Shown one piece after another: positions 1,860 through 43,078 of a stretch of 64,000 bases of DNA. The notes under the pieces were generated by a model. It saw only the letters and a list, made by a program, of their open reading frames with translations. It was not told the DNA's origin and searched no databases. This DNA is from an uncultured Rhodospirillaceae bacterium (GTDB lineage Bacteria > Pseudomonadota > Alphaproteobacteria > UBA8366 > GCA-2717185). Position numbers and translations under genes: made by a program. The first letter of the stretch is position 1. The number at the start of each line of letters is the position of its first letter. The stretch lies in the NCBI GenBank assembly GCA_964474755.1, contig CAYYUG010000002.1, forward strand, positions 3,096 through 67,095, in the 5' to 3' direction.

Positions 1860-2089
1860 GGCAGTGCATAGTTTACGATTGCAGCAATTGCCGATGATTG
1901 GTCATGTATTGCTGCGATTGGGAACAAGTATGTTCCATTGAAACGTCCAATCGCCCATAAGAATTGCCGGGCGATGCAATCTGGGTTTTCTTCTTGATAT
2001 TCAGTGCCTCCTTCGACAAGTGCCAGGCAAACGAATAAAATAGCTTGTATCCTCGACTTTTTGGCAACCGCCTAATGGAGTTCCCAAGC

Positions 2090-2935
2090 ATGAAATTTGG
2101 CGCATCCATGTTTTGCACTGACTATTCCATGAACCCAGCCGAACTAAGCCTTGCCATGGAAGAACGTGGCTTCGAGTCCTTTTGGGCGCCGGAGCATTCG
2201 CACATACCTACGTCGCGCATCTCGCCCTGGGGCGGCGGTCCGGAGCTGCCAAAACGTTATTACGACGTAATCGACCCATTTGTTGGCCTGGCAACAGCTG
2301 CTGCGGTCACCAAAAAGCTAAAGCTAGCAACAGGGGTCTGTCTGATCATCCAGCGCGATCCAATTCAATTGGCGAAGGAAGTGGCGACACTGGATTATCT
2401 TTCTGATGGTCGGTTTCTGTTCGGTATAGGTGCTGGCTGGAACCGCGAGGAAATGGTTAATCACGGCACCGATCCGATTACCCGTGTAAGGCTAATGGCG
2501 GAGCGGGTGGCTATGCTCAAGACTATTTGGACTGAGAAAAAGCCAGAATTCAATGGTGAGTTCCAAAGCTTCGAACCGATGATGACATGGCCGAAGCCAG
2601 TACAGAAGCCTCATCCACCTATTTTGGTGGGTGGCGCTATGCCCCATGCCGCGCGCCGAGCTGTTGCCTATGGTGACGGTTGGATACCTTTAGGTGGTCG
2701 CGGCGCGGATGTTCTGAACCAATTACCTCGTTTCCGACAAATGGCAACTGAGGCCGGCCGTGACACAGACAGTCTGCCTGTTTCGATTTTCGGATCGGAG
2801 ATGAACATTGATATTTTGAAGAAGTACCGTGACGCGGGCATTGAGCGAGTTGTCTATTCATTAGAGTCGGAAAAGGCTGATCAAGTTTTGCCGGTGCTTG
2901 ATACAATCGCCAGTCTAATACAGTCTATTGATTAA
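2090..2935 (+). CDS. luciferase-like monooxygenase (LLM) class oxidoreductase, Rv2161c-like (F420-dependent-type) subfamily
   Basis: MKFGASMFCTDY..., ERGFESFWAPEHSHIP, IIQRDPIQLAKEVATLDYLSDGRFLFGIGAGWNREEM and KPHPPILVGG are typical of the LLM/Rv2161c-type family. Start moved from the TTG at 2045 to the ATG at 2090, which has a GGAG ~9 nt upstream. Confidence 0.8.
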   Translation: MKFGASMFCTDYSMNPAELSLAMEERGFESFWAPEHSHIPTSRISPWGGGPELPKRYYDVIDPFVGLATAAAVTKKLKLATGVCLIIQRDPIQLAKEVATLDYLSDGRFLFGIGAGWNREEMVNHGTDPITRVRLMAERVAMLKTIWTEKKPEFNGEFQSFEPMMTWPKPVQKPHPPILVGGAMPHAARRAVAYGDGWIPLGGRGADVLNQLPRFRQMATEAGRDTDSLPVSIFGSEMNIDILKKYRDAGIERVVYSLESEKADQVLPVLDTIASLIQSID

Positions 2936-3026
2936 AGGCGGGTTCCTATAAATGATATTAAATCAGTAACTTAAGAAGATGGTCGAATGAGCGATAGCTT
3001 AATTTTGCAGAAATTTAATAACAAAA

Positions 3027-3075
3027 AAACTGGTCTAGAAACACAGCTTAAAGCATATAAAATAGTGACCAGTTT
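3027..3075. terminator. long-loop inverted repeat between convergent LLM and OYE genes (possible bidirectional terminator)
   Basis: AAACTGGTC (3027-3035) and GACCAGTTT (3067-3075) are perfect 9-bp complements. An A-run precedes them and TTT follows. The loop is 31 nt, which is long for an intrinsic terminator. Confidence 0.3.
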
Positions 3076-3148
3076 ATGCACTAAAATTAAAAACAAACGT
3101 TAAATATGATTATAATAAAGGTTTAACTTCGACAAAATTAAATATTGT

Positions 3149-4354
3149 TTACCCAGGTGTATTCTTTGCTGCTGAGCCAACTTTCCAATCGTTAGGGTTA
3201 GAAGAGGTTAACATTCTTTCTCTAACTTCTAACCACCATCCGGTATTCGGTGGCCATCCTTCGAAGCCATTATTATCACTGAACTCATGTAAAGCCTGCA
3301 GTGCCCAGTTTGGGTTAAATAGAGCTTCTCGTCCTAAAGCAATAAGGTCTGCTTTATCCGTAGAGATAATTTTATCCGCTTGTTCTGGCCGAAGAATTAA
3401 TCCAACTGCCATTGTTAACAAATTACAATTTTTTTTAATCTCGTCGGCAAAGGGTACTTGGAAGCCAGGTTTTGGCGGCTCCTTAGAAGCCAAACTAAAC
3501 AATGAGTTTGGCCCCTTAATGCCGCCTGATGAGCAGTCAATTAAATCCACCCCAGCACGTTTTAATTCGTTTGATAGCTCAATCGTGTCTTCGATTTGAA
3601 GGCCACCTTCAAATCTATCTATACAAGATAATCTAAAAAATAAAGGTTTGTGGTTAGGCCAAAATATTCTGATTTCTTTAGCAATTTCAATTGCTAACCT
3701 GAATCTATTTTTCTTGGATCCGCCATAATCGTCAGTTCTAAAATTATTTATTGGAGATAGGAAAGAGTGAATTAAGTACCCATGGGCGGCATGCACATCT
3801 AATATGTCAAAGCCAGCTTGGTCGCATCTTTTCGCTGCCTTACCAAACCTTTTTATTAACTGTTTAACTTGTGATAGAGTGAGAGCCTTAGGCTTGTCGT
3901 AACCAGGTGCTGATGGCACATCACTAGACGATACAATGTCCCATGTTTGCTCTGCGCCGTTTGTGTTAGATTGGCTAAGAGGTTGTAATCCGTCATATGG
4001 CCTCTGTCTTGCTGATTTGGGGCCACAATGGCCGATTTGTGCGGCTGGTATTGAGCCTCTAGAACGAATAAAATCGGAAATATGTTTTAATTTAGAAACT
4101 TGCTTGTCATTCCAAATGCCAGCATCTGAATATGTGCTGCGACCACGCTTTTCTACACAAAGTACTTCAGTGAATACTGTTCCAAACTTAGCTTCAGCAA
4201 ATTTTCCCAGGTGAACTAGATGCCAATCAGTCATACACCCGTTGTCCTTTGCCATATACATTTGCATAGGTGATAAAACAACGCGATTTGGGACAGTTAT
4301 ACCTCTAATCTTCAAGGGTTGGAAAAGGTGTCTTCCAAGCTGTTTAGTTTTCAT
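3149..4354 (-). CDS. NADH:flavin oxidoreductase, Old Yellow Enzyme family (YqjM/NamA-like)
   Basis: LFQPLKIRGITVPNRVVLSPMQMY N-terminus, HAAHGYLIHSFLSPINNFRTDDYGGSKKNRFRL active-site block, and C-terminal LIALGREALFNPNW. The gene and its flanks are visibly more AT-rich than neighbouring genes. Confidence 0.85.
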   Translation of the reverse strand: MKTKQLGRHLFQPLKIRGITVPNRVVLSPMQMYMAKDNGCMTDWHLVHLGKFAEAKFGTVFTEVLCVEKRGRSTYSDAGIWNDKQVSKLKHISDFIRSRGSIPAAQIGHCGPKSARQRPYDGLQPLSQSNTNGAEQTWDIVSSSDVPSAPGYDKPKALTLSQVKQLIKRFGKAAKRCDQAGFDILDVHAAHGYLIHSFLSPINNFRTDDYGGSKKNRFRLAIEIAKEIRIFWPNHKPLFFRLSCIDRFEGGLQIEDTIELSNELKRAGVDLIDCSSGGIKGPNSLFSLASKEPPKPGFQVPFADEIKKNCNLLTMAVGLILRPEQADKIISTDKADLIALGREALFNPNWALQALHEFSDNNGFEGWPPNTGWWLEVRERMLTSSNPNDWKVGSAAKNTPG

Positions 4355-4810
4355 AACAGTAATTCTTTCACAAAGGGCTGGATCTTTTTTGCGTTGGGTT
4401 TAGATCGTATATTTTATGAATAGAATGAACAAAAATTCGTGAAATCCAGGCTGGATAATAACACGCACGGCGGTATATGAGAATTGTCTGGATATAGAAC
4501 GTATAGGTTTTAAATTTGAGGGGGCTTTAACAAGGGTATCAATTCGTTAGCTGAATTTATGAAATTTCAGTTGAGGGCTCTGAAACCTAGGAATTGATGC
4601 TTATGAAAGGGTTGACGATGCTTCGTGTTGTTGAAACTTGGCTATCAAGACGCTGTGGTATCACACTATAAAAGAACGCCTTCCAGTTGAGATGGCGGCC
4701 AATGTCTAGCCCAGAAACGGTCCGCAAATTAATAATAATTTTGGGTACGAAATTTCCTATCGTTTAACTGCCTGTTCGACAACAGGGACTCCCAATAACA
4801 CGAAACGACC

Positions 4811-5143
4811 CTATCGTCCCCGGAGTTCTATCAGGAGTTTCGCCGCGGCGGCGACGCTATTCGATAGCGGTTTTTGTTCGCAATAGTTATCGATCCATAG
4901 CATTGCACTGTCCAGATCGCTGCCTTCCAGCCAGTTCGCCTTGCCGGGAATATATGCATTGGCAGCAGTCAGGTAGCCTGATACCCAGAAGACATCTAAA
5001 ACTCTTGACCAGCTATCTTCCTTTTTGTCGCGGATCCACTCTACACAACTACGTGTCTCAAAAGTGACATACCCGCCGGCTTCGTCAGCGTGTCCGGGCA
5101 CTGCAATCAGCAATGTTGCAACGAATGCGATTACAAAGCGCAC
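4811..5143 (-). CDS. exported small protein (110 aa) with cleavable signal peptide and two conserved-looking cysteines; function unknown
   Basis: GTG start preceded by GGGAGG. Signal peptide MRFVIAFVATLLIAVPGHA|DE. The mature part carries C..W...W.SGYL...N...WIDNYC. Confidence 0.6.
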   Translation of the reverse strand: MRFVIAFVATLLIAVPGHADEAGGYVTFETRSCVEWIRDKKEDSWSRVLDVFWVSGYLTAANAYIPGKANWLEGSDLDSAMLWIDNYCEQKPLSNSVAAAAKLLIELRGR

Positions 5144-5276
5144 GGCCTACCTCCCGAGTGTTATTTTAGCCACGACTTCCGTAATTTCGCGATGGTTCCC
5201 TTATTACAACTTTAGGTACAGCGGCTTCTGGGTTGCGCAGCTATGGGCATATTCCTGAAAGTCACATAGTGGTGAT

Positions 5277-6149
5277 CTAGCGCGAGCGAAGTTCTCGGTG
5301 CAGGATGAATAATCCAGCGCCAACTACCAGCATTCCACCCGTTAGTTTCAAAGCATCCGGTACATCTCCCCAGACCGCATAACCAATGACAACCGCCCAG
5401 ACCAGAGAAAGATATCGGAACGGCGCCATTGTTCCACCAGGTGCTAGTAGTAGGGCTTGGATCGCAAGTAAATGTGAAAGCGAATTTAAAATTCCAGCAC
5501 AAGCTAGTAGAACCCATTGCACCGAACTGGGCCATTGGGCCCCGAAAACGGGCATGGTAATGGCTCCAATTAGGACACCAGCAAGCATCGAATAGAACAG
5601 GATCGAAACGGCGCTGTCGTCGTTACGCAGCCGACGGGTCGCCACATCACGTAACGCTGATAACAGAGCTGTGAAAAGGGGAAAAAAATAGAAGAAAGGG
5701 ATACCTTCTCCGCTTGGACGCACCATCATCAGCAGGCCCGTGAAGCCGACAAAGACGGCCAGCCAGCGCCGCCAACCGACTCGTTCCCCTAACAACGGAG
5801 AGGACAACGCAGTGAGTATGATTGGCGAGACAAAAATAATTGCCAGAGCGTCAGCCAGGGGCAGGTAGATGAAAGATATCACAACGAATATTGATGTGGC
5901 TCCGCCCAATATGGCGCGGACGAGCGTGCCTTTGAGATTGCGACTGACCAATTGCTCTATGCCACCCGACCTCATCGCTATAATCATTATGATGGGCACA
6001 AAGGTAAAAAGGCCACGAAAGAACATGATTTCGCCCGGATGGAAATCGGTCGTCAGCGATTTGCTAATGGCATCCTGAATGGTCATCAGGAGACCGGCGG
6101 CAATCATGCATAACGACCCCTTAGCACCGTCGGATAAATTCCTTAACAT
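5277..6149 (-). CDS. DMT superfamily (EamA-like) transporter
   Basis: About 10 hydrophobic segments arranged as two EamA-type halves. Start uncertain: the ORF begins at a TTG (6212), and the ATG at 6149 gives a typical ~290-aa length. Confidence 0.75.
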   Translation of the reverse strand: MLRNLSDGAKGSLCMIAAGLLMTIQDAISKSLTTDFHPGEIMFFRGLFTFVPIIMIIAMRSGGIEQLVSRNLKGTLVRAILGGATSIFVVISFIYLPLADALAIIFVSPIILTALSSPLLGERVGWRRWLAVFVGFTGLLMMVRPSGEGIPFFYFFPLFTALLSALRDVATRRLRNDDSAVSILFYSMLAGVLIGAITMPVFGAQWPSSVQWVLLACAGILNSLSHLLAIQALLLAPGGTMAPFRYLSLVWAVVIGYAVWGDVPDALKLTGGMLVVGAGLFILHRELRSR

Positions 6150-6265
6150 AACATTGCTATGCGGTCGCTCCTTGGCATCGGATGCAAGTAGGTCGAAGTA
6201 TTGGCACGGCAAAAAGGTACTTCGCTAGACTTAAATTCTATAAGGAACCGCATAATCTGGCCTAG

Positions 6266-7031: not shown

Positions 7032-8246
7032 ATGAAGCGAAATATCATCATCGTCGGAGGCGGCGTGGTTGGATGCAGTGTGGCCTGGCATTTGGCGAAG
7101 CACGACCTCGGCAACATAACCTTGGTCGAAAAGGAACAACTCGGCGCGGGAACGACCTGGCACTCGGCCGGCAATCTTACCTGGCGGCCTGATGGTGATC
7201 GTGATGCCCCGGTGCTCTATATGTTTGATCTGTTGGACGAGGTGGAGCACGAAAGCGGCCTAGAAATCGGTTGGCTGCGCACTGGCCGGCTGTTTGTTGC
7301 ACGTCACGAAGCGGCACTAGCCTCGTTCGAAACCCAAGCGGCGGCCGCGACGGCACGTGGCTTCGAATCACATGTATTGGATCCCAAGGCAGCCGCTCGC
7401 CACCATCCGCTGTTGAACCCGGAAGCCTTGGTTGGTGCTTGGTTGAATGGGAGTTCAGGCCACCTCGATCCCTCTAACCTAACCGCTGCCTATGCACGCG
7501 CTGCTCGTAGGCGAGGCGTTACGATTGTCGAGAATGCTCGGGTCGAGGGTCTCGAGACGAAGGGCGGGCAGGTTGTTGGCGTACGTACCACGTCGGGAAT
7601 GCTGGCGGCTGACATCGTCGTGGTGGCTGCCGGCCTTTGGTCGCGGGAGCTTTTGGAACCCCTTGATATCGCGCTCGCACAATGGGGGTGCGAACACTTC
7701 TACGTTATCGCCGACATTGGCGAGCCCCTGCCTCGAGAAACTCCGTCTTTCGTGGCGCCCGCTGATTTGATCTATGGACGCGAGGATGTCGGCCATTTTC
7801 TCTTCGGTTGTTTTGATGAAGGGGCGCTGACCCTGGACACCGATGCGTTGCCCAGTCCCTTTGCCTTCACCCTGCTGCCGCCGAATTGGGATAAGTTCGC
7901 ACCCTATTTCGAGACAGTGGCTCAACTCTTTCCCGCGGTGCGCGATGCGCCGATCCGACAATTCGTCAACGGTCCCGAGAGCTTCACGCCCGACGGTCAT
8001 CCTCTGATCGGGCGTCTCTCCAGTTTCGACGGACTTTATGTGGCAAGCGGAATGAATTCTCATGGTGTGACGCTGTCGGGCGCAGCCGGACATATCATCG
8101 CCGATTTGATCGCCGAGGTCCCCTGTCGGTTCTCGGCAGAGGATTATGCGCCGGAGCGGTTCGGAGAGAAATCGGGCGACGTCGAGTGGCTACGTGCCCG
8201 CATTGCCGACGCGCCGAGCGGCTACTACCGAGGTACCAAACTCTAG
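7032..8246 (+). CDS. FAD-dependent oxidoreductase, DAO family (dimethylglycine/sarcosine-dehydrogenase-like flavin domain only)
   Basis: N-terminal dinucleotide fold IIIVGGGVVGCSVAWHLAK followed by GAGTTWHSAGNL, reminiscent of DMGDH/sarcosine dehydrogenase-type amine oxidoreductases. No folate-binding (GcvT) domain follows. Confidence 0.8.
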   Translation: MKRNIIIVGGGVVGCSVAWHLAKHDLGNITLVEKEQLGAGTTWHSAGNLTWRPDGDRDAPVLYMFDLLDEVEHESGLEIGWLRTGRLFVARHEAALASFETQAAAATARGFESHVLDPKAAARHHPLLNPEALVGAWLNGSSGHLDPSNLTAAYARAARRRGVTIVENARVEGLETKGGQVVGVRTTSGMLAADIVVVAAGLWSRELLEPLDIALAQWGCEHFYVIADIGEPLPRETPSFVAPADLIYGREDVGHFLFGCFDEGALTLDTDALPSPFAFTLLPPNWDKFAPYFETVAQLFPAVRDAPIRQFVNGPESFTPDGHPLIGRLSSFDGLYVASGMNSHGVTLSGAAGHIIADLIAEVPCRFSAEDYAPERFGEKSGDVEWLRARIADAPSGYYRGTKL

Positions 8247-8446: not shown

Positions 8447-9214
8447 TCAGACCATTACGAGGCCGCCGTCTACATAAAGCGTCTGGCCGGTCATGAATTG
8501 CGCCCAATCTGACGCTAAGAAAAGCACTGGACCAACGACATCCTCTGGTCCAGCGATGCGGCGCAGAGGAGTTTGAGCGGTGATGGCGTCTTTGGTGGCT
8601 TCCTTGGTTGCAGCACTGGCCGCTGTTGGATAGACGAGCCCTGGCGCTACTGTATTAACGCGAACGCCCATCGGACCAAGTTCTGCCGCCAAATTGCGGC
8701 CAAAACCGATAAGCGCTGCTTTGGCGGTTGTGTAGTCGTGGTAGGGTACGACGGGTCGAGCAACTAAATCCGTTGCGATATTGACGATGGCCCCTTCAGC
8801 CCTTTGCAGCATCGAAGGCAGAACTGCTTGGGCTAAACCATGTGCAGACTTAACGGCGCCTTCGAACTGCGCCTGGTAATCCGACCAATCCAATTCCCAG
8901 TGCAGCTTCCGTTGCTCGGGATCAAACCGGTAGGGTCGAAAAGCGTTGTTCACCAGTACATCCACCTTGCCGAACGCATCCACTGCTCGGTCAACAAGAG
9001 CGAATGCCTGATCTCGGTCCGTGACATCAGCCTTAACGGCAATTGCGTCTCCACCTGCAGCCTCACATGCTGCTACGCTTGCATTCGCTGCATTCGTATT
9101 TTGCAGGAAGTTGACGGTAACGGATGCACCTTCTGCCGCGAACGCGTTGGCAATTGCTGCTCCAATGCCACGACTGGCTCCTGTGACTAGGACCGATTTC
9201 CCGGCGAAGTCCAT
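8447..9214 (-). CDS. SDR family oxidoreductase (FabG-like), last gene of the LuxE/LuxC-ABC operon
   Basis: VTGASRGIGAAIA glycine-rich motif, NNA(F) motif, YTTAKAA (YxxxK), and C-terminal GQTLYVDGG. Starts 17 nt after the substrate-binding protein stop. Confidence 0.85.
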   Translation of the reverse strand: MDFAGKSVLVTGASRGIGAAIANAFAAEGASVTVNFLQNTNAANASVAACEAAGGDAIAVKADVTDRDQAFALVDRAVDAFGKVDVLVNNAFRPYRFDPEQRKLHWELDWSDYQAQFEGAVKSAHGLAQAVLPSMLQRAEGAIVNIATDLVARPVVPYHDYTTAKAALIGFGRNLAAELGPMGVRVNTVAPGLVYPTAASAATKEATKDAITAQTPLRRIAGPEDVVGPVLFLASDWAQFMTGQTLYVDGGLVMV

Positions 9215-9231
9215 GATACTCGCTCTTGCTG

Positions 9232-10203
9232 CTATTTCGGAATGAGGTCGGATTTGATGACCGAACTCATAGTCAGATTAGCCTTTATTAGGCCAAGGCC
9301 TTTAAAGGTCTCAGCTCCTTTTTGGAGTAGATCTATATCAAAATGGCCGAGCCCTTTCGACCTAGTTGTTGCAGATTGAGCAGAGATATTGCGGATCTTG
9401 ATGATCGCGAGATTGATCGCTTCATTGCGACCATTAATGGAGCGTTTGATGGCGATCTTCGCCGCTTCTTCGGGCTCCGAAATCATCCAGGCCGCACTGT
9501 CACGGTATGCAGCGAGAAAACGCTTCAGTAGTGGCTTATTGGCCATGTAATACTCTTTTGTCACGACAAACATATCGCTTGGTACATTCAGGCTATCTGC
9601 AACGTTGATGACATTCACGTCGCCAAGGCCTTTTAACTTGCCGACATAAAGGCCTGTATCCGTTGCCGCCGTCGCATCGACTTGGCCCTGTATTACGGGA
9701 GCGAAGTTTAAAAGGCCCGTTACTTTAATTGTCACGTCCGTTTCTGTCAGGCCAACCTGGTGTAGGAGCACCTGAAGGTTTTGTCGCGTGCCGCTGGAGA
9801 GACTATAGACGCCAATCGTCTTACCCTTTAGATCCTCGGGCTTTTTAATGCCGCGGTCGGCAGGCGATACGACGTTAAAAACATTCTGAGGGTAGATGTT
9901 ATAGATTGCGACTAGCATCTCGCCCTTGTCGAGCGCCTGATAGAACGATGCTGGGTCTGTGAACGCCACGTCTGCGGCGCCGGAGAGCATATTTCGAATG
10001 GCGGAGCCGCCGCCAGCGCCCGGCACATACTTCATTTCGATATTTTGAGCCTTGAAGAAGCCTTTATCGGGTTCCGCCAGTATATTTGTAATCTCACTGA
10101 TCGGCTTGCTCCAACCAGCGATGCGCACCGTATCCATTGACTGCGCAGACGCAGAAACAGCGCTTAACAAAATTGCTGCTACGACGACGGTCCGAAACAT
10201 CAT
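9232..10203 (-). CDS. ABC transporter periplasmic substrate-binding protein, NMT1/THI5-SsuA/TauA-like (NitT/TauT family)
   Basis: Signal peptide MMFRTVVVAAILLSAVSASAQS. The body resembles NMT1/SsuA-type binding proteins. Start set to the ATG at 10203, which forms an ATGA overlap with the permease stop. The 94 upstream codons of the raw ORF are Arg/Cys-rich junk that overlaps the permease. Confidence 0.8.
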   Translation of the reverse strand: MMFRTVVVAAILLSAVSASAQSMDTVRIAGWSKPISEITNILAEPDKGFFKAQNIEMKYVPGAGGGSAIRNMLSGAADVAFTDPASFYQALDKGEMLVAIYNIYPQNVFNVVSPADRGIKKPEDLKGKTIGVYSLSSGTRQNLQVLLHQVGLTETDVTIKVTGLLNFAPVIQGQVDATAATDTGLYVGKLKGLGDVNVINVADSLNVPSDMFVVTKEYYMANKPLLKRFLAAYRDSAAWMISEPEEAAKIAIKRSINGRNEAINLAIIKIRNISAQSATTRSKGLGHFDIDLLQKGAETFKGLGLIKANLTMSSVIKSDLIPK

Positions 10204-10961
10204 TGATTTTGTCCTTTCATCCAGCCGGACAACAATTGATGTTCGACTAAAATTGTTAATTGGTAAAACAGCATTCCCAGAGCGGTAATTACGATAAATA
10301 AAGCGAACATCAGCGTTGAATCCATCATGCCCTGCGCGGTGATGATACTGGAGCCAAGACCAGCGGATCCGCCAATAAATTCGCCGACCACGGCACCCAC
10401 AAGTGCCAGGACAATGGCGACGCGAACGCCTGCCATAATTACCGGCAGGCCGGATGGAATTTTGAGCTTCAATAGTGTCTGCCAACGAGAGGCACCGAGC
10501 ATTCGGAAGAGGTCGCGCTTATCAGGGGTTATGGTTTGTAGGCCTGTCATTGTGTTCTCAAGCAGAGGAAAGAAGCAGATCAAGGCTGTGATCACGATGG
10601 TTGATGTCATCCCGAAACCGAACCAGACGATAAAGATTGGTCCAAGGGCGAGTTTAGGAACAACTTGACTGGCTAGCACATATGGCCAGAGAAGTTGTCG
10701 CAGAAATTCTATCTCTCCGAGGATGACGCCTGCGAGGAAGCCAATGATGCAACCGAGTGCAAATCCAACTAGCGTCTCGACTGATGTCACCCAGATATGG
10801 GGCCAAAGAAAGCCCACGGTGAGGCCGTCCCAAAGTACGCTGAGAACGGCAGATGGCGCAGGAATAACCAGTGCTGAAACCCCGGTCGTGCGGACTACAC
10901 TTTCCCAGAGTAACAGCAGCACTAAAAACAGCGTTAGAGAAAGGAAGCTTGTGCGGTTCAC
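10200..10961 (-). CDS. ABC transporter permease (NitT/TauT family)
   Basis: Six hydrophobic segments and an EAA-like loop (MLGASRWQTLLKLKIPSGLPVIMAG). The GTG start overlaps the ATPase stop (GTGA). Confidence 0.85.
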   Translation of the reverse strand: MNRTSFLSLTLFLVLLLLWESVVRTTGVSALVIPAPSAVLSVLWDGLTVGFLWPHIWVTSVETLVGFALGCIIGFLAGVILGEIEFLRQLLWPYVLASQVVPKLALGPIFIVWFGFGMTSTIVITALICFFPLLENTMTGLQTITPDKRDLFRMLGASRWQTLLKLKIPSGLPVIMAGVRVAIVLALVGAVVGEFIGGSAGLGSSIITAQGMMDSTLMFALFIVITALGMLFYQLTILVEHQLLSGWMKGQNQ

Positions 10962-11728
10962 GCTGTACCTCTCATCTCAGGTATCATCGCCTTTCGTAAT
11001 TCAAGGCATGCAGCATTGAACTCGGATGAATAGCGCTGTGTTTGATTGCGTGGTCGAGACAGTGCCACATCCGTTGCGAACACGATGTGTCCGGCGTCCA
11101 TGACCGCTACTTTATCTGCTAGATAAACTGCCTCGCCGATGTCATGGGTGACGAAAAGCACGGTGGTGTGGTGCAGTGCTGCGAGTTGAAGAAGGTCATC
11201 CTGCAATTCCTCACGTGTGATGGCATCTAGGGCTGCAAAGGGTTCGTCCATCAAAAGGCCATCAGGCTCTGTAATCAATGCACGTGCAAGCGCCACACGG
11301 CTTTGCTGACCGCCAGAGAGTTGGCCTGGATAACGATTAGTATGTTCTTCTAATCCAACCAGTTGAAGTAACTCTTTTGCTGCCGTCTGGTCTGTCAGTG
11401 TGATAGGCCGATGTAAAGAGACCGGCAACAGAACATTGTTTAGGATAGTCTGCCACTCAAGGAGCGACGGTGACTGGAAAACAAACCCCACATGTTGTGA
11501 AGGTTTTGGTACATCCGCCCCCAGCATTTTAACTGATCCAGATGTAGGTTGCAGAAGCCCCGCCGCCAGCTTCAATAGTGTTGTCTTTCCACAACCGCTC
11601 CGCCCGACAAGGCAGTGCACGCCCCCCTCTGGGACCGACCAGTTGATATTAGAGACTACGTCGCCGAAGGACCCTTCATAGGCGAACGTCGTTGAACTTA
11701 GATCAAGGAAACAGCTGTTAGTCGGCAT
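10958..11728 (-). CDS. ABC transporter ATP-binding protein (NitT/TauT family)
   Basis: Walker A GRSGCGKTT, signature LSGGQQSRVALARAL, Walker B LLMDEPF. The ATG at 11728 overlaps the LuxC-like stop by 11 nt. Confidence 0.88.
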   Translation of the reverse strand: MPTNSCFLDLSSTTFAYEGSFGDVVSNINWSVPEGGVHCLVGRSGCGKTTLLKLAAGLLQPTSGSVKMLGADVPKPSQHVGFVFQSPSLLEWQTILNNVLLPVSLHRPITLTDQTAAKELLQLVGLEEHTNRYPGQLSGGQQSRVALARALITEPDGLLMDEPFAALDAITREELQDDLLQLAALHHTTVLFVTHDIGEAVYLADKVAVMDAGHIVFATDVALSRPRNQTQRYSSEFNAACLELRKAMIPEMRGTA

Positions 11729-13157
11729 AGGGCGCCAACCTGTCTGCAGCTGCAAATGCCCGGCCATCGATCTCAACAATCCGAACAAGGTCGCTCAAAT
11801 TAAACCGACCATCATGATGCCATCCGGCCTCTGGCGCGGTCATATCGCCAACCGCCGCTATTCGCGTAACTCCGGCTGCGCCCAAATCCTGAGAAAGACT
11901 TAACAGCCGTTGCGGTGAAACTGCAATTCCAACGGTTTGCAAAAGGCGCTTGTATCGGGCTGCGCGGATGGGGACGCTCGCCAGGTCATCGACTGCGACG
12001 ACACGAATTGTCCGGTTCAGAGCGCTCGGCCTGAAACCGTCCTCGTCTTCAAGATAGGACACCGACCAAGCGCCATTCGTATCGCCGACGACCTCTGCGC
12101 CGGCGACCAATTCTTCTGCATTTCGCCAATCTGCGACGCTGGAGGCTTCTGGAATGCTGAGTGGTCGGCGGGGGAACTTACGCTCCAGCGTCGCTAATTC
12201 GTGTGCCAGAAACTGGGCGAACTGTCGGGGCGCGACCGTGCCACCAGTCTCCGCAAAAATGACATGTGGGCTAAAGCAGCCATGTTGGTCATAGCGCGCA
12301 ACATCATATGCGACTAGACGCGCTGTTACTGAGCATTTTTCTGCATCCATTGCTTCTCGCCCGATTAGGCTAAAGCTGACCTTATGTCCGTGGGCCAGAA
12401 ACCGCGTCGTGATTGGAATTCGGGACTGGATCGCAGAGAGCGCTTCATTGCCGCCGTAAGCCAGCGCTATATCGGCCTCTGCAAGCAGCGCGTTTTCTGC
12501 ATCCTCTTCTCCACCTTTCCACCAAACAATGGCGATGCAGTCAGCTAATTCGGGCTCAATTTCAGACAGTAATTTTACGAACCAAGTTGCAAACATTGGC
12601 TCAGCGCTTGGAACTTTACCAATTGTTCCGGATTTAACCAGAAGCCCTGAAACAAGACTCCAAAGTGGCAAACCAGGTACATTTCCAGCCCAAATATGTG
12701 CGCAAATTTCCGGACCGAAGGCTAAGCCATGGCCGCCCTTGGCTAACGGTTGAAACTGATCCAATATTGCCGGGTTAGGGAAATCTTCCGCTAGAAACCG
12801 CTGAAGCTCCGGTTTCCTAAAAGATTTGAGATACTGCGTTAGACCAAGTCGAAGCATTTCCCGGTCATAGCCTGTAATAGCAGGTAAAACCTCTTCCATG
12901 CGGCGACGGTACGGGTCATCCCGGTCAAGTAAACGGGCAATTGCCTTATCTATGATCTCGACTATCCGCCTCACCGGATATGTCGCGAGGGTTTGTCGAG
13001 TATGCCTTCTAATATGTTCAGCTAACGACTGAACATCAGGGCCTGTTATAACAGGCACATCAATTTTTAGATCCCATCCTGATTTATCAAAGAGCAGCGT
13101 CTCCCAATCCAACGTTGTTGGATCAAGACCTGGCAAATGGCATGCGCGTTCATTCAT
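11718..13157 (-). CDS. LuxC-family acyl-CoA/acyl-protein reductase (aldehyde-forming) homologue
   Basis: HIWAGNVPGLPLWSLVSGLLVKSGTIGKVPSAEP, active-site-type YDQHGCFSP and C-terminal WHHDGRFNLSDLVR align, from memory, with Photobacterium/Vibrio LuxC blocks. The ATG lies 5 nt after the LuxE-like stop. Confidence 0.8.
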   Translation of the reverse strand: MNERACHLPGLDPTTLDWETLLFDKSGWDLKIDVPVITGPDVQSLAEHIRRHTRQTLATYPVRRIVEIIDKAIARLLDRDDPYRRRMEEVLPAITGYDREMLRLGLTQYLKSFRKPELQRFLAEDFPNPAILDQFQPLAKGGHGLAFGPEICAHIWAGNVPGLPLWSLVSGLLVKSGTIGKVPSAEPMFATWFVKLLSEIEPELADCIAIVWWKGGEEDAENALLAEADIALAYGGNEALSAIQSRIPITTRFLAHGHKVSFSLIGREAMDAEKCSVTARLVAYDVARYDQHGCFSPHVIFAETGGTVAPRQFAQFLAHELATLERKFPRRPLSIPEASSVADWRNAEELVAGAEVVGDTNGAWSVSYLEDEDGFRPSALNRTIRVVAVDDLASVPIRAARYKRLLQTVGIAVSPQRLLSLSQDLGAAGVTRIAAVGDMTAPEAGWHHDGRFNLSDLVRIVEIDGRAFAAADRLAPYAD

Positions 13158-13162
13158 AACAA

Positions 13163-14323
13163 CTAGGTGCCGCTGGCAGCTTTTAAAAACTCATCGACCG
13201 CCATCGAGCAACCCTGTGCCTCTATTCCGGCCGCGCGACCAATTAGTTGGAAGCCGTTATCGATAGCGACGCCAGCATCCTCCGTTAGTATCGTTGTGCA
13301 GATGTTGAAGTGTGCTAGGTCTGTATGTGCCAAAATGCCCGTCTGACTGTCCGGTATGCTCTCGCCCGTTAGTGGGTTGACTACCCGCGTTCGCAGCCAA
13401 TGTGGGCCAGACTTGACGGATGGGCAGCTTATATTGCCGTCATCGTAAAACTGGGATGAAAGCTCCGTCATACCGTACATATTAATGCAATGACTGCGTG
13501 GCACCCCAAACGCCGTTTCGAGACAATTATAAAACTCATCCTGCTGCAATTCGCGAGATTGGCCTTTGAAGCCACCGGTGTCCAAAATCCGGCTACCTGA
13601 GGGTAAAACAACCGTGTGGCCGATCCGTGCCATTTCATCCAGCACATGGACAAGGCTGAAGCTTGCGCCAAGCAGCGCGTAGGGTTGGTTTGTCTGTTCA
13701 GCTTCTGCAAGGTCTTCAAAGAGATGGCTGAATTCTATTCCGCTGGCGCCCATAAGGTGGCGGCTGTTGTTGATGCCGAAGTCCCGGACCGCGAGGTCAA
13801 GGTAATGCGCCAGAGAAGAGTTCGGCATTAGCGATGGAGGCGGAAACACAATGCCCATCTTTATCCGCTCATATCTGCCCATGAAACGGTCACGGAAGTT
13901 TCGGCGCATGGAGGCGTCGTAGATATCCAATACGGGGTGATAACTTTTACCGCGCACTCCTCCTAAGGTAGTGCCGCTAGTCATAAAAATTGCCTCTGCT
14001 TCTTCTATCGGTGAGCAGGACAAATTCATGGTCTTGAAGGCGTTAATCGGGACGGCGGGAATATCCTTCCAGGATTTGACAGTGCGCGGGGTTTTACCGC
14101 GTTTCCGAGCGAATTTCATGAACGGTTCGTTGTTTTTGAATTGATATGCAAAAAGCTTTAGCGCCACATCGTTGAACGCGGTGTCATCTGTGCCTTCCAT
14201 TTCGATAAAGTCTAAGACGGTGGCTATAATTTCTTCCTGGTCCATCGATTCGTCTTTCACGCTCAGTGACGGTGATGGGTCGCGCGGCGCTGAAAAGGAA
14301 TTTAATGGATGAGAAAATTCCAT
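13163..14323 (-). CDS. LuxE-family acyl-protein synthetase (adenylate-forming) homologue
   Basis: DIPAVPINAFK, FMTSGTT adenylation motif, DTGGFKG, and a C-terminal QGCSMAV cysteine in the position of the acylated Cys of LuxE (from memory). Start ambiguous: TTG 14356, ATG 14323 (GGAGG upstream, used here) or ATG 14245. Confidence 0.78.
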   Translation of the reverse strand: MEFSHPLNSFSAPRDPSPSLSVKDESMDQEEIIATVLDFIEMEGTDDTAFNDVALKLFAYQFKNNEPFMKFARKRGKTPRTVKSWKDIPAVPINAFKTMNLSCSPIEEAEAIFMTSGTTLGGVRGKSYHPVLDIYDASMRRNFRDRFMGRYERIKMGIVFPPPSLMPNSSLAHYLDLAVRDFGINNSRHLMGASGIEFSHLFEDLAEAEQTNQPYALLGASFSLVHVLDEMARIGHTVVLPSGSRILDTGGFKGQSRELQQDEFYNCLETAFGVPRSHCINMYGMTELSSQFYDDGNISCPSVKSGPHWLRTRVVNPLTGESIPDSQTGILAHTDLAHFNICTTILTEDAGVAIDNGFQLIGRAAGIEAQGCSMAVDEFLKAASGT

Positions 14324-14572
14324 TTCCTCCGCCGGTATGATCCGGGTCAGGTTCAAAGGATCGTCGCACCGGCGAGCCTAAATTTGCACGCCTATCGACA
14401 TCTCAGCCTCTAAAGCGAGGCTCTCCTATGGTTAGCTACTCAAAAATTAGGCTGTGAAGGTACTTAACGTCAACCCATGCCACGATGGTTTAACGTGGGA
14501 TAGCCAACCTTTGGTGGCCAATCCAGTTTGGATGCTAGGACGCATGATTAGGCTGATGTTGCTGCAAGTTGG

Positions 14573-14605
14573 CTATTAAATAGTGACGCGAGTCCTATTT
14601 AATAG
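14573..14605. repeat. perfect 11-bp inverted repeat with 11-nt spacer in the divergent control region
   Basis: CTATTAAATAG (14573-14583) and CTATTTAATAG (14595-14605) are exact reverse complements. Confidence 0.6.
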
Positions 14606-15127
14606 AACGCTTTTCCAGCGAAACAGTGGTGCAATAGTAGACTTGCAAAAATTATATAAGGTCATTTGCAAATATTGAATAATCTTAGGGACGGCAAATT
14701 TTGTGTCAGTAGCCGACTGGATCCCCGAATTTGGGCTGGCCTTAAAGTTGGGTTTTCCAGCTACTTCGTCGGGCTGCATAAGGAAACAGATAGAAAACGA
14801 TCATCTTTAAGTAGTATTGGGGAAAATTTAAGGCAGTAATTCGATCCTATCACTTATATTTTCAGCGTGAAATCTGTAGGCTACTGGTTTGTGTCCCCTT
14901 TTTAATGCTATTTTTTTTACGCAGAGCATCGGGTTAATGCTTCATATTCCAAATTGAAATTTTCAGTTCCGACATTATTTTAATTTGTTGAGGATTGTTG
15001 TGCTCGTTTTTTACGCCTGTTCATTAGGCTATGGTGCAGGAAGAATTGGTATGCACCAGAGACTTGGGACTTGGATAAGACGGGTGCTCTATGCCACGAT
15101 GTTTCGATTGCAATCGGAGGTCATACC

Positions 15128-16396
15128 ATGGACGACGGCAAGGTTATCGAAAATACCAAAGCGGAAAGCGCATTATCACCTTATGTGCCGACCCTCCAGC
15201 TGACCGAAGGGCAGCCGCCGCCCATCGCTGCCCATGGTGGGCTCTCCTACATGTCCTTTGATAAAGACGGTGATGCGGGAACCGCTTACGCGTTGAAGGA
15301 TGCATTTGCTCAGCTTGCTGAAGGTGAGGGGCAACGAGTTCTTGACATGATCGATGACGCGCCGCCGGGCCCGGTTGAGACCAAATGGGGCCTTGGCTTC
15401 CGCAAGTATGAAGAGTGCATGGAATACATTCGCGCTCAAGGTATCAAAGCTCCAGAAGGTGGTTTGGCCCTGCCGCTTCCCTATACGATTTATGAGCGAC
15501 CGACTTATTCAGTTGTGCCTTCCAATGCTGTCTGGAACGATCCGGCGCGGGCGGCGGAGGCGAAAATTTTGCGTAAGGAGGAAGAAGATACGCGGCGACG
15601 TAATTTGTTCTTCCCGCAGTTAATGCGCGACGCGCGACGGATGGAAGATTACCATCCTGGTCTTTCGCCGAACAGTCCTGAGTGCATGGATAAGCTTGGT
15701 GTTTCCCTCGCTCACCTCGAGTCCAATTGTGAAAATTTCTACGATTCTACTGAAGTGGAACGCGTGTTCTATCCAGAGATCGAACAGCTTCTCCTAGATT
15801 TCTTTCCGGGAGCAACGGACGCGCTGGTCTACAATCACGACGTCTTTGACAAGGACTATATGGGCGACCGTACTGAGGATCAGGACGCCAAGAACCCGGG
15901 AGTGAACGCTCGCTACGCCAATCTTGTGCACAACGACCTGAATGACAATAGTGGTCGCGTCCGTTGTAGAGAACTGCTGACGAATAACCTGCGCAATTTC
16001 GGCCGGAAACAGAACTACACGGAGGCCGAGGCGGACGCGAAGATGTCGCGGCGTTTCATGTCGATTAATCTCGCTAAGCCAATGGAGACGGTCGAACAGT
16101 TCCCCTTCGTTCTGTGTGCCTGGCCATCCTTTGCGGACCAACCCTATATCAATAACTATCGTATCTATGACGACCGGGTCGGCGAAACCACGCGTTTCAC
16201 CTATCGTAAGGATCACGAGTGGTATTGGGTCCCGCAGCAGACCTCTACAGAGGTGTCAATGCTGAAGTGCTACGATTCAGTGACAGATGGCTCCGTTTCG
16301 CGCTGGTCATTCCACACCGCCTGTATCGACCCGACGGTTTCAGTCGACGCACCGTGCCGCAAAAATATCGTGGTCCGCTCTTACATCTTCTTCTAG
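15128..16396 (+). CDS. CmcJ/NvfI/AsaB-like (non-heme Fe/2OG oxygenase-related) protein with ~190-aa N-terminal extension of unknown type
   Basis: The C-terminal ~230 aa carry family-typical blocks: VFYPEIEQLLLDFFPGATDALVYNHDVF, LVHNDLNDNSG (HxD), RFMSINLAKP, HEWYWVPQQTSTEVSMLKCYDS, and SFHTACIDP...RKNIVVRSYIFF. Start set to the ATG at 15128 (GGAGG 8 nt upstream) rather than the TTG at 15071. Confidence 0.65.
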   Translation: MDDGKVIENTKAESALSPYVPTLQLTEGQPPPIAAHGGLSYMSFDKDGDAGTAYALKDAFAQLAEGEGQRVLDMIDDAPPGPVETKWGLGFRKYEECMEYIRAQGIKAPEGGLALPLPYTIYERPTYSVVPSNAVWNDPARAAEAKILRKEEEDTRRRNLFFPQLMRDARRMEDYHPGLSPNSPECMDKLGVSLAHLESNCENFYDSTEVERVFYPEIEQLLLDFFPGATDALVYNHDVFDKDYMGDRTEDQDAKNPGVNARYANLVHNDLNDNSGRVRCRELLTNNLRNFGRKQNYTEAEADAKMSRRFMSINLAKPMETVEQFPFVLCAWPSFADQPYINNYRIYDDRVGETTRFTYRKDHEWYWVPQQTSTEVSMLKCYDSVTDGSVSRWSFHTACIDPTVSVDAPCRKNIVVRSYIFF

Positions 16397-42120: not shown

Positions 42121-42232
42121 GCAGCCTATCTCTCACGCGGGTTTGCGCCTGCTGTCGACTAGGGCAGTGGCCGCTCCGGTGCCGGGTAACCGGCTTTCGC
42201 TCGCGGTGGTATAACCGGTAAAGGATACGAAC

Positions 42233-43078
42233 ATGGCGATGCCGACATTTACAATACGCCAGCTGCTTGAGGCTGGCATCCACTTTGGCCATACCACGCG
42301 CCGATGGAATCCGCAGATGCGGCCCTATATATTCGGCGAAAGAAATGGCATCCACATCATCGATCTGGAACAGACGGTACCGATGTTGCAGCGCGGCCTG
42401 GAAGCCATCCGCGAAGTCGCGGCTGGTGGTGGCCGAGTGCTATTCGTGGGTACGAAGCGTCAGGCGACAGAAATTATCTCTGCTGCGGCGATACGTTGCG
42501 GCCAGTACTACGTCAATCATCGCTGGCTTGGTGGTATGTTGACGAATTGGCGCACGATTTCCAATTCAATCAAAAGGTTGCGAGATATTGAAGAGCATCT
42601 GGCGGTTGAGGACATTGGCTTGACCAAGAAGGAGTTACTACGTCTGACTGCGGAGCGAGACAAGCTTGAGAGGGCCCTCGGTGGAATTAAGGAGATGGGA
42701 AGTTTGCCGGATATCCTGTTCGTTGTTGATACGAACAAGGAGGCGATAGCGGTGGCAGAAGCCCAGAAACTCGGTATCCCCGTTGTAGCAATTCTGGACA
42801 GTAACTCTAGTCCCAGCGGTATCACACATCCGGTGCCGGGTAACGATGATGCGATGCGTGCGATCACTCTCTATTGTACACTCGTCGCTGACTGCGTCCT
42901 CGATGGCTTACAGGCGGAGTTGCTGTCGTCCGGTGTTGATATTGGCGAGGGCGAAATGGCTCCAGTCGAAGCGCTTCCGGAAGCCGATGCAGAAGGTGTT
43001 GCGGCCCCGACGGCTGGAGCAGCAGAGCCCAAAGTCGAGGAAGCCACGGAGGTAGCTGTTACCGAAGGAAACACTTAG
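42233..43078 (+). CDS. rpsB: 30S ribosomal protein S2 (with acidic Ala/Glu-rich C-terminal tail)
   Basis: [60 protein letters not shown]. Confidence 0.97.

Follow-up and report, generated by a model that had tools for sequence, protein, structure and literature searches.

The window analyzed here, 64,000 nucleotides of contig CAYYUG010000002.1 (assembly GCA_964474755.1) from an uncultured Rhodospirillaceae bacterium, carries on its minus strand an operon headed by a thiamine pyrophosphate (TPP) riboswitch. The bacterium is a Rhodospirillales-like alphaproteobacterium, and its DnaE shares 85% identity with the DnaE of the metagenome-assembled genome OFTM273. The operon encodes a LuxE-like acyl-protein synthetase, a LuxC-like acyl-thioester reductase, an ATP-binding cassette (ABC) importer and a short-chain dehydrogenase/reductase (SDR). 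We consider it very probable that this is an operon for the salvage or repair of a thiamine-related compound, and with moderate confidence we favor the more specific reading that it is repressed through the riboswitch and serves the reductive salvage of an oxidized, carboxyl-bearing moiety of thiamine. The original prediction, made from the sequence and without database searches, had recognized the enzymes and the importer, and had proposed a sulfonate or other small acid as the substrate. It overlooked the key feature of the system, namely the TPP riboswitch at the head of the operon, and also, in other genomes, the fusion of the same unit to thiD, thiC, thiM-thiD-thiE or thiW; the two findings shift the interpretation from catabolism of a sulfonate or small acid to the salvage of vitamin B1. 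The features of the operon, in the order of transcription, are:

14307..14437, minus strand: TPP (THI-element) riboswitch aptamer at the operon head (Rfam RF00059, 66.2 bits)
14246..14306, minus strand: leader from the aptamer to the probable start codon, putative expression platform (sequence reading)
13163..14245, minus strand: LuxE-like acyl-protein synthetase, 360 aa (Pfam PF04443, 57.3 bits)
11718..13157, minus strand: LuxC-like acyl-thioester reductase, 479 aa (Pfam PF05893, 298.5 bits)
10958..11728, minus strand: ABC transporter ATPase in a ThiZ-like position, 256 aa (Pfam ABC_tran, 113.4 bits)
10200..10961, minus strand: ABC transporter permease in a ThiX-like position, 253 aa (Pfam BPD_transp_1, 97 bits)
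9232..10203, minus strand: periplasmic binding protein of the NMT1/THI5/ThiY type with a signal peptide, 323 aa (Pfam NMT1, PF09084, 151.8 bits)
8447..9214, minus strand: FabG-like SDR, putative aldehyde reductase and last core gene, 255 aa (Pfam adh_short_C2, 193.8 bits)

The TPP riboswitch and the layout of the operon

An Rfam scan of the whole window recovered the aptamer over the complete model (positions 1-105) with an E-value of 8e-11 and a score above the gathering threshold of 54.3 bits. It lies directly 5' of the luxE-like gene and overlaps its mechanical open reading frame (ORF), for which the TTG at 14356 is only a mechanical start. Given that this frame runs into the aptamer, that homologs are 359-367 aa long and that conservation begins at 14245, the luxE-like coding sequence most likely starts at the ATG at 14245 and spans 13163-14245, leaving a leader of about 60 nt. 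Another candidate start codon, the ATG at 14323 within stem P1 of the aptamer, was rejected, as its counterpart in the close homolog L001 is, by coordinate arithmetic, out of frame with luxE and homologs are about 360 aa long. Hence, of the extent 8447-14356 given by the original prediction, the gene set stands and the 5' end does not.

Within the leader, the sequence UCCAU (14309-14305) is able to pair either with AUGGA in the 3' strand of P1 (14323-14319) or with AUGGA at the start codon (14245-14241), and this choice of partners suggests that TPP might control sequestration of the start codon. In the minimum free energy fold of the leader the CAUCCA segment is indeed paired with the start-codon region; the fold is not significant (z -1.5) and speaks neither for nor against the model. 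As the scan for promoters and terminators was likewise not enriched over shuffled sequences, we offer this expression platform as a suggestion only.

The six co-oriented genes at 8447-14356 are tightly coupled. The luxE-like stop TAG (13165-13163) is separated by a 5 nt gap (TTGTT) from the luxC-like ATG at 13157, and the luxC-like gene, which ends in TAA (11720-11718), overlaps by 11 nt the ATPase gene beginning with the ATG at 11728. ATPase and permease genes overlap as GTGA (10961-10958), permease and binding-protein genes as ATGA (10203-10200), and 17 nt separate the TAG of the latter (9234-9232) from the SDR ATG at 9214. No luciferase, LuxD or LuxG was found by Pfam and NCBIfam among the flanking ORFs scanned (4.8-16.4 kb). 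Thus, all nine sequence statements of the original prediction, on the six minus-strand ORFs with their gaps and overlaps, on three enzyme motifs (see below) and on the missing luxA/B/D/G, hold.

To survey the riboswitch in related clusters we built a covariance model, R1, from 21 aptamers lying upstream of them. A strict THI-box regular expression matched only 51 of 78 loci, and the covariance model was used instead; a first alignment including short betaproteobacterial and Bacillota aptamers had misaligned these and did not enter the model. An R1 aptamer lies upstream of luxE and on the same strand in 72 of the 77 evaluable loci of a first set and in 50 of 53 of a later one, and the riboswitch-headed loci span Alphaproteobacteria, Betaproteobacteria and Bacillota. 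By Rfam itself gathering-level aptamers occur in loci L060, L070, L211, L213, L216 and L219, and the genera in which this score is reached include Variovorax, Achromobacter, Neobacillus, Loigolactobacillus and Aquibacillus; the Metabacillus aptamer scores 52.3 bits.

Several loci carry more than one regulatory RNA. Two tandem aptamers precede a permease of the NCS2 family in L213 (4213-4321 and 4402-4503), and L073 (6533-6658, 8691-8817) and L273 (2606-2708, 5132-5231) have separate aptamers for thiC or thiM-thiD-thiE and for the luxE unit. A ZMP/ZTP riboswitch just downstream of thiE in Metabacillus (L074, 17368-17446) and a PreQ1 riboswitch upstream of the cluster in Aquibacillus (L219, 2823-2867) appear to be unrelated to the system.

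The LuxE-like and LuxC-like enzymes and the SDR

Profile searches bear out the family membership claimed by the original prediction: the LuxE-like protein exceeds the PF04443 cut-off of 24.9 bits and covers model positions 31-388 of 391, and the LuxC-like protein lies far above the PF05893 cut-off of 21 bits. Among PDB sequences each has a sole match in 7XC6, the fatty acid reductase complex of P. phosphoreum with its LuxC and LuxE chains: the LuxE-like protein matches LuxE (chain E, E 7e-16) and the LuxC-like protein LuxC (chain A, E 4e-15). Both score far below the NCBIfam equivalogs of the lux enzymes (61.6 against a cut-off of 550 bits for LuxE NF052244, and 85.7 against 750 bits for LuxC NF052251); hence, as judged by these profiles, they are members of the Pfam families and not orthologs of the lux enzymes.

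A comparison of conserved residues showed that: 1) The LuxE-like protein, which has the FMTSGTT motif, belongs to the adenylating enzymes; it has no ANL C-terminal subdomain and ends instead in a short tail, ...EAQGCSMAV. The Cys346 of this tail (acyl-Cys motif QGCSMA) is invariant in 78/78 homologs, across which the motif takes the form (K/R/Q)GCS(M/L/I)A, and the tail fits the LuxE acyl-Cys motif described as TRxxKGCxLS (PMC9157457). 2) Cys346, Cys253 and Lys227 are each at least 97-100% conserved in the same 78 homologs, and Lys227 is aligned to Lys238 of 7XC6 chain E. 3) In the LuxC-like protein Cys294, in the motif YDQHGCFSP, is aligned to the catalytic Cys (ACFS) of 7XC6 chain A, the reference residue being Cys296 of P. 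phosphoreum LuxC, and is invariant in 109/109 homologs. The catalytic cysteines are thus kept throughout. The residue two positions before this Cys, at position 292 (12284-12282), is His in the window protein (YDQHGC) and Gln in at least 97% of the 109 homologs (YDQQGC). The LuxE-like clade is large, with 2620 clusters at E <= 1e-5, whose public names include 'long-chain fatty acid--CoA ligase', 'hypothetical protein' and 'Acyl-protein synthetase, LuxE'; an exact-match look-up of the LuxC-like protein returned no record.

The third enzyme, the SDR, scores 290.9 bits against NCBIfam NF006393 (cut-off 292). Wherever the contig extends far enough it is present, also in the variants that lack a transporter or carry an NCS2 permease, and it is always the last core gene. 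A riboswitch-controlled FabG-like SDR of the OarX kind was reportedly noted by Rodionov et al. in 2002. OarX is a TPP-riboswitch-controlled, FabG-like SDR that clusters with thiD, thiE, thiM and thiamine transporters and has been proposed as a reductase in the salvage of those oxidation products of thiamine that bear a carboxyl group (Oliveira-Filho, Rodionov & Hanson 2024, PMC11223231). With it the SDR of the present unit shares membership in the adh_short_C2 family, a riboswitch-headed operon and, in related loci, fusion to thiD, thiM or thiE; the likeness is one of family, riboswitch and neighbors. A scan for stand-alone OarX-like genes with the Metabacillus SDR returned only further copies of the luxE-luxC cluster.

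Conservation, importers and thiamine genes across genomes

We sought relatives of the LuxC-like protein in one genome per species and found them in 339 species genomes; a second, independent scan that started from a divergent member in Bacillota gave the same count. For comparison of gene order about 147 distinct loci were fetched, which belong to Alphaproteobacteria, Betaproteobacteria and Bacillota. The order luxE-luxC-ATPase-permease-binding protein-SDR recurs in about 110 of these, and hence the arrangement is far beyond chance and the linkage noticed by the original prediction is not unique to the source genome. This order is seen in Alphaproteobacteria, in the betaproteobacterial genera Polaromonas, Ramlibacter, Variovorax and Achromobacter, and in Metabacillus, Neobacillus, Priestia, Domibacillus, Geobacillus and Desulfosporosinus among the Bacillota; in a single locus, L209, the ABC genes stand in front of luxE. 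To call the enzymes "hard-wired" to the ABC importer was nevertheless an overstatement: about 15 loci have luxE-luxC-SDR with no transporter, and in about 13 Bacillota loci an NCS2 permease, of the purine/pyrimidine (nucleobase) type, precedes luxE-luxC-SDR as an alternative importer.

To characterize the ABC importer we searched a profile of 28 binding-protein orthologs against PDB sequences, with the following matches:

4NMY, C. difficile substrate-binding protein solved with thiamin bound (PMC10586155): profile E 3e-17
3QSL, putative exported protein: profile E 2e-15
4H6D (also 4H65), THI5, hydroxymethylpyrimidine phosphate (HMP-P) synthase: profile E 8e-10
3IX1, ThiY, binding formylaminopyrimidine (FAMP): profile E 1e-9
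2X26, SsuA: profile E ~7e-5
6SSY, TauA: profile E ~7e-5

The binding protein falls below the cut-offs of the sulfonate-type families, with 88.5 against 163.5 bits for the SsuA family TIGR01728, 34.2 against 299 for SsuA PRK11553 and 24.3 against 304.25 for TauA TIGR01729. The best NCBIfam similarities of the ATPase and the permease are to nitrate/sulfonate/taurine-type ABC systems, far below the respective cut-offs. A segment S137-G138-T139-R140 is invariant in the binding-protein family and differs in 4NMY and ThiY; its composition would be compatible with the binding of an anionic group. An NMT1/THI5-fold binding protein with a permease and an ATPase under a THI-element is the constellation that defines ThiXYZ-type systems, and we accordingly predict from the sequences an importer of the ThiY/THI5 type, with a ligand of the thiamine-pyrimidine kind.

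Genes of thiamine biosynthesis and salvage are joined to the unit in a number of genomes. In seven betaproteobacterial loci (Ramlibacter, Rhodoferax or Burkholderiales) the riboswitch is followed by an inserted thiD and then by luxE; thiD stands alone directly after the SDR in L083 (Ornithinibacillus) and as thiD-thiE in the same place in L205, a metagenome-assembled genome (MAG) of Paenibacillaceae, so that thiD is fused in the absence of thiM in nine loci from two phyla. In L073 thiC, with its own riboswitch, lies immediately upstream of the unit, and in about 10 Bacillota thiM-thiD-thiE follows or precedes it.

Copies are borne on plasmids in Priestia megaterium (plasmid unnamed1, L096/L262) and Variovorax (plasmid pVarWS11_2, L079), and plasmid location in at least two genera fits the patchy distribution across phyla and horizontal transfer. 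Clustering of the flanking genes of 78 loci revealed no conserved neighbor; at most nine loci share one, these being dienelactone hydrolase, tsaD, polynucleotide phosphorylase and response regulators. The unit is therefore self-contained, and the luxE-luxC-SDR core with its exchangeable importer constitutes a mobile functional unit. The dienelactone-hydrolase-family gene shares the strand of the riboswitch and closely precedes it in L066 (7958-8680) and eight related loci, which form one alphaproteobacterial subclade lacking the ABC genes, and is outside the riboswitch-controlled unit. A MAG of candidate division WOR-3 carries a distant LuxE/LuxC pair (L240, 5793-8320; 35% and 42% identity) with no SDR, transporter or riboswitch at the locus, which is probably an out-group pair with a different role.

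From the lack of conservation in the flanks it also follows that the neighbors of the operon in the window are incidental. One of these, convergent with the SDR, encodes a DAO-family FAD oxidoreductase (7032-8246, plus strand) whose best NCBIfam match is the glycine oxidase ThiO (141 bits, cut-off 250.8); no such gene was found beside the cluster in the related loci checked and, its thiamine flavor notwithstanding, its presence is probably a coincidence. On the other side a divergent gene at 15071-16396 (plus strand) encodes a CmcJ/NvfI-family oxidoreductase (NF041278, 127.5 bits, cut-off 80; no Pfam match). The AT-rich spacer of about 630 bp between it and the riboswitch (14438-15070) must hold both promoters, and no convincing sigma-70 site was found in it. 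Positions 2001-6000 of the window have a lower GC content (0.44-0.47 compared to about 0.53 elsewhere) and carry a small secreted-looking ORF (4811-5143, minus strand) and an EamA-family transporter (5277-6212, minus strand). EamA genes (26-27% identity) are also convergent to the SDR in four transporter-less loci, which is probably coincidence. At 42132-42230 (plus strand) the Rfam motif RF01815, an rpsB leader/sRNA, scores 41.8 bits (gathering score 40) directly upstream of an ORF (42233-43078) that by its position is presumably rpsB.

A predicted reductive route in vitamin B1 salvage

The sequences demonstrate which genes are present and how they are coupled, the riboswitch, the synteny, the conservation of catalytic residues and the linkage to thi genes, and from them we infer the chemistry of each step, its direction and the identity of the substrate. 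We think it likely that the operon turns a carboxylate into an alcohol by reduction. At low TPP the riboswitch would permit expression, and the acid would be taken up by the ThiY/THI5-type ABC importer or, in other genomes, by the NCS2 nucleobase-type permease. The LuxE-like enzyme would then adenylate the acid in an ATP-dependent reaction and form a thioester on its own C-terminal Cys346, from which the acyl group would pass to Cys294 of the LuxC-like enzyme, to be reduced there to the aldehyde at the expense of NAD(P)H; conversion of this aldehyde to the primary alcohol would fall to the SDR. This sequence of import, carboxylate activation and reduction to aldehyde and alcohol, as laid out in the original prediction, is still the best mechanistic reading of the genes.

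As for the substrate, our candidate is the pyrimidine acid 2-methyl-4-amino-5-pyrimidinecarboxylate (PCA), which would be reduced to hydroxymethylpyrimidine (HMP), an assignment that we make tentatively and rate at somewhat short of an even chance. It is favored because both of the alternative transporters are of pyrimidine/nucleobase types and because thiD without thiM, together with thiC, makes up the commonest specific fusions; the invariance of the luxE-luxC-SDR core while the transporter is swapped also counts for the proposed route. Several observations weigh against it. Five loci (L014, L016, L032, L038 and L052) have the full luxE-luxC-ABC-SDR cluster and no TPP aptamer detectable even with filters off, which we take as loss of the riboswitch. 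To ThiY and 4NMY the binding protein is no more than distantly related (profile E 1e-9 to 1e-17), and the roughly 15 loci lacking a linked transporter imply that the substrate may also arise inside the cell. The thiM-thiD-thiE fusions are uninformative as to which moiety is salvaged, and specific fusions to thiazole genes also occur: thiM alone follows the SDR in Ammoniphilus (L106 and L108), and in two Bacillaceae (L273 and L233) the gene between the riboswitch and luxE is thiW, which encodes an energy-coupling factor (ECF) S-component predicted to transport thiazole (TIGR02359, 172.5 bits). Since thiazole genes are thus fused in a few genomes, the gene fusions alone do not single out the pyrimidine. 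We note separately that three of the five aptamer-less loci have near-identical sequence just upstream of luxE, which resembles the 3' part of a protein-coding gene, apparently one for a methyltransferase.

These thiazole fusions are the starting point for the view that the same mechanism acts on the thiazole moiety, reducing methylthiazole acetic acid (MTA) to hydroxyethylthiazole (HET). LuxE is PaaK-like, and the substrate of PaaK is an aryl-acetic acid (PMC9157457), while riboswitch-controlled SDRs are mostly associated with thiazole genes (PMC11223231). However, the co-varying transporters, with their ThiY/THI5-type binding protein and NCS2 permease, both point to the pyrimidine ring, and the nine loci from two phyla with thiD and no thiM, to which the thiC adjacent in L073 may be added, compare with only two having thiM alone; we therefore regard MTA as an unlikely substrate. 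Less likely still is the reduction of the whole vitamin, by import of thiamin acetic acid and its conversion to thiamin. Such a substrate would account for the presence of both pyrimidine and thiazole genes nearby, is known to be formed by bacteria through oxidation of thiamin (PMC11223231) and would agree with the thiamin-bound 4NMY being the best PDB match of the binding-protein profile. But a bulky, cationic, bipartite molecule is an improbable cargo for an NCS2 nucleobase permease, the unit is fused to neither a thiamin kinase nor a pyrophosphokinase gene, and the thiD inside the operon in seven loci would not be needed if the product were thiamin.

About as improbable as the thiazole route is a thiamine-related role with other chemistry, for instance detoxification of a toxic analog or damage product, or action on another derivative, in which LuxE and LuxC would yield neither HMP, HET nor thiamin. 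The association with thiamine seen here is regulatory and genomic only, and in C. glutamicum, where OarX was tested, not one of five obvious oxidation products could be salvaged, neither PCA, MTA and thiamin acetic acid nor the oxo-derivatives, and unknown derivatives were suggested (PMC11223231). Yet the LuxE-LuxC-SDR trio follows a straightforward logic from acid through aldehyde to alcohol with all catalytic residues kept, and the uptake systems and the insertion of thiD argue for salvage into biosynthesis rather than disposal. The sulfonate hypothesis of the original prediction, under which an imported sulfonate or small carboxylate unrelated to vitamins would enter catabolism or assimilation in the manner of SauT/SauS/IsfD, is largely refuted and now highly improbable. 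It can point to the nitrate/sulfonate/taurine ABC systems nearest to the ATPase and permease and to the 88.5 bits of the binding protein against the SsuA family. All such NCBIfam matches are, however, far below the family cut-offs, the binding-protein profile prefers thiamin/pyrimidine binders (1e-17 to 1e-9 for 4NMY, THI5 and ThiY, as against ~7e-5) by 5-12 orders of magnitude in E-value, a TPP riboswitch heads about 95% of the loci, thi genes are fused to the unit, and no sulfur-metabolism genes are linked to it by the flanking-gene clustering of the 78 loci.

Returning to the reductive salvage of a thiamine moiety, the route bears on a gap in B1 metabolism, namely the metabolic fate of the long-known degradation products PCA, MTA and thiamin acetic acid. 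Thiamine is in short supply and expensive to synthesize, and many bacteria in the environment rely on precursors obtained by exchange. In the most recent study devoted to them the three acids are listed as 'orphan' oxidation products of thiamine whose salvage would need carboxyl activation and dedicated reductases (PMC11223231). The operon would supply just the activities called for there, i.e. carboxyl activation, thioester reduction and aldehyde reduction, under TPP control, beside thiD or thiC in some genomes and along with transporters of thiamine or pyrimidine type. The text of PMC11223231 makes no mention of LuxC, LuxE or an ABC system, and no link between LuxC/LuxE and thiamine was found in the full-text literature searched, a scope outside which most subscription journals, RegPrecise and SEED lie, so that a prior mention is possible. 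If correct, the proposal would assign to the LuxCE architecture a physiological role outside bioluminescence and a substrate other than a fatty acid, each for the first time. A large LuxE/LuxC-like clade, whose present annotation is long-chain fatty acid-CoA ligase or acyl-CoA reductase, would gain a function, the difficulty of finding a role for SDRs under TPP riboswitches would be accounted for, and one or more vitamers would join the models of B1 cycling in soil and sea. An annotation gap of long standing would also become open to direct test with compounds that can be purchased.

Among known systems, the one that the importer brings to mind is the ThiXYZ route, in which FAMP is converted via aminomethylpyrimidine (AmMP) to HMP by YlmB and TenA. 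The two have in common an NMT1/THI5-fold binding protein, a permease and an ATPase under a TPP riboswitch, and on the present proposal would share the delivery of a pyrimidine that becomes HMP for ThiD. They differ in that the binding protein of the window is remote from ThiY (profile E 1e-9) and has the family-specific invariant SGTR, no TenA or YlmB is linked to the window-type unit, and the conversion would be reductive, at the expense of ATP and NADPH, rather than hydrolytic. The overall chemistry proposed here is known from the carboxylic acid reductases (CAR) acting with aldehyde reductases, in which ATP-dependent adenylation, an enzyme-bound thioester and NADPH give the aldehyde and then the alcohol. 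CAR is a single multidomain enzyme with a phosphopantetheine arm, whereas the LuxE/LuxC type consists of two proteins with cysteine thioesters.

The LuxC-LuxE complex of lux operons (7XC6; PMC9157457) is like the present pair in its adjacent genes, the LuxE lacking an ANL C-terminal subdomain, the C-terminal acyl-Cys motif of the form (K/R/Q)GCx(L/M)(S/A), the Lys238 equivalent and the catalytic Cys of LuxC. In contrast to it, the unit in the window has low identity to the lux enzymes, lacks luxAB, luxD and luxG, has the order E then C, and is headed by a TPP riboswitch and linked to genes for a transporter and an SDR; its presumed substrate is a small polar heteroaromatic acid in place of myristate. 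The OarX operons, for their part, show only occasional clustering with acyl-CoA synthetase genes, and the C. glutamicum strain studied has only the riboswitch-controlled SDR, with no LuxE or LuxC reported there (PMC11223231), while the window-type SDR is always preceded by the LuxE/LuxC pair. An aldehyde substrate, which is missing where an enzyme of the OarX type acts by itself, could come from this pair. We tentatively view the operon as an ATP- and NADPH-dependent 'reductive repair' branch of B1 salvage, in which a LuxE/LuxC reductase and an OarX-like SDR might convert PCA, possibly MTA, to HMP (or HET). The system, widespread and unannotated as such, is best classed as one combining riboswitch-controlled salvage of a vitamin precursor with carboxylate reduction of the LuxCE type.

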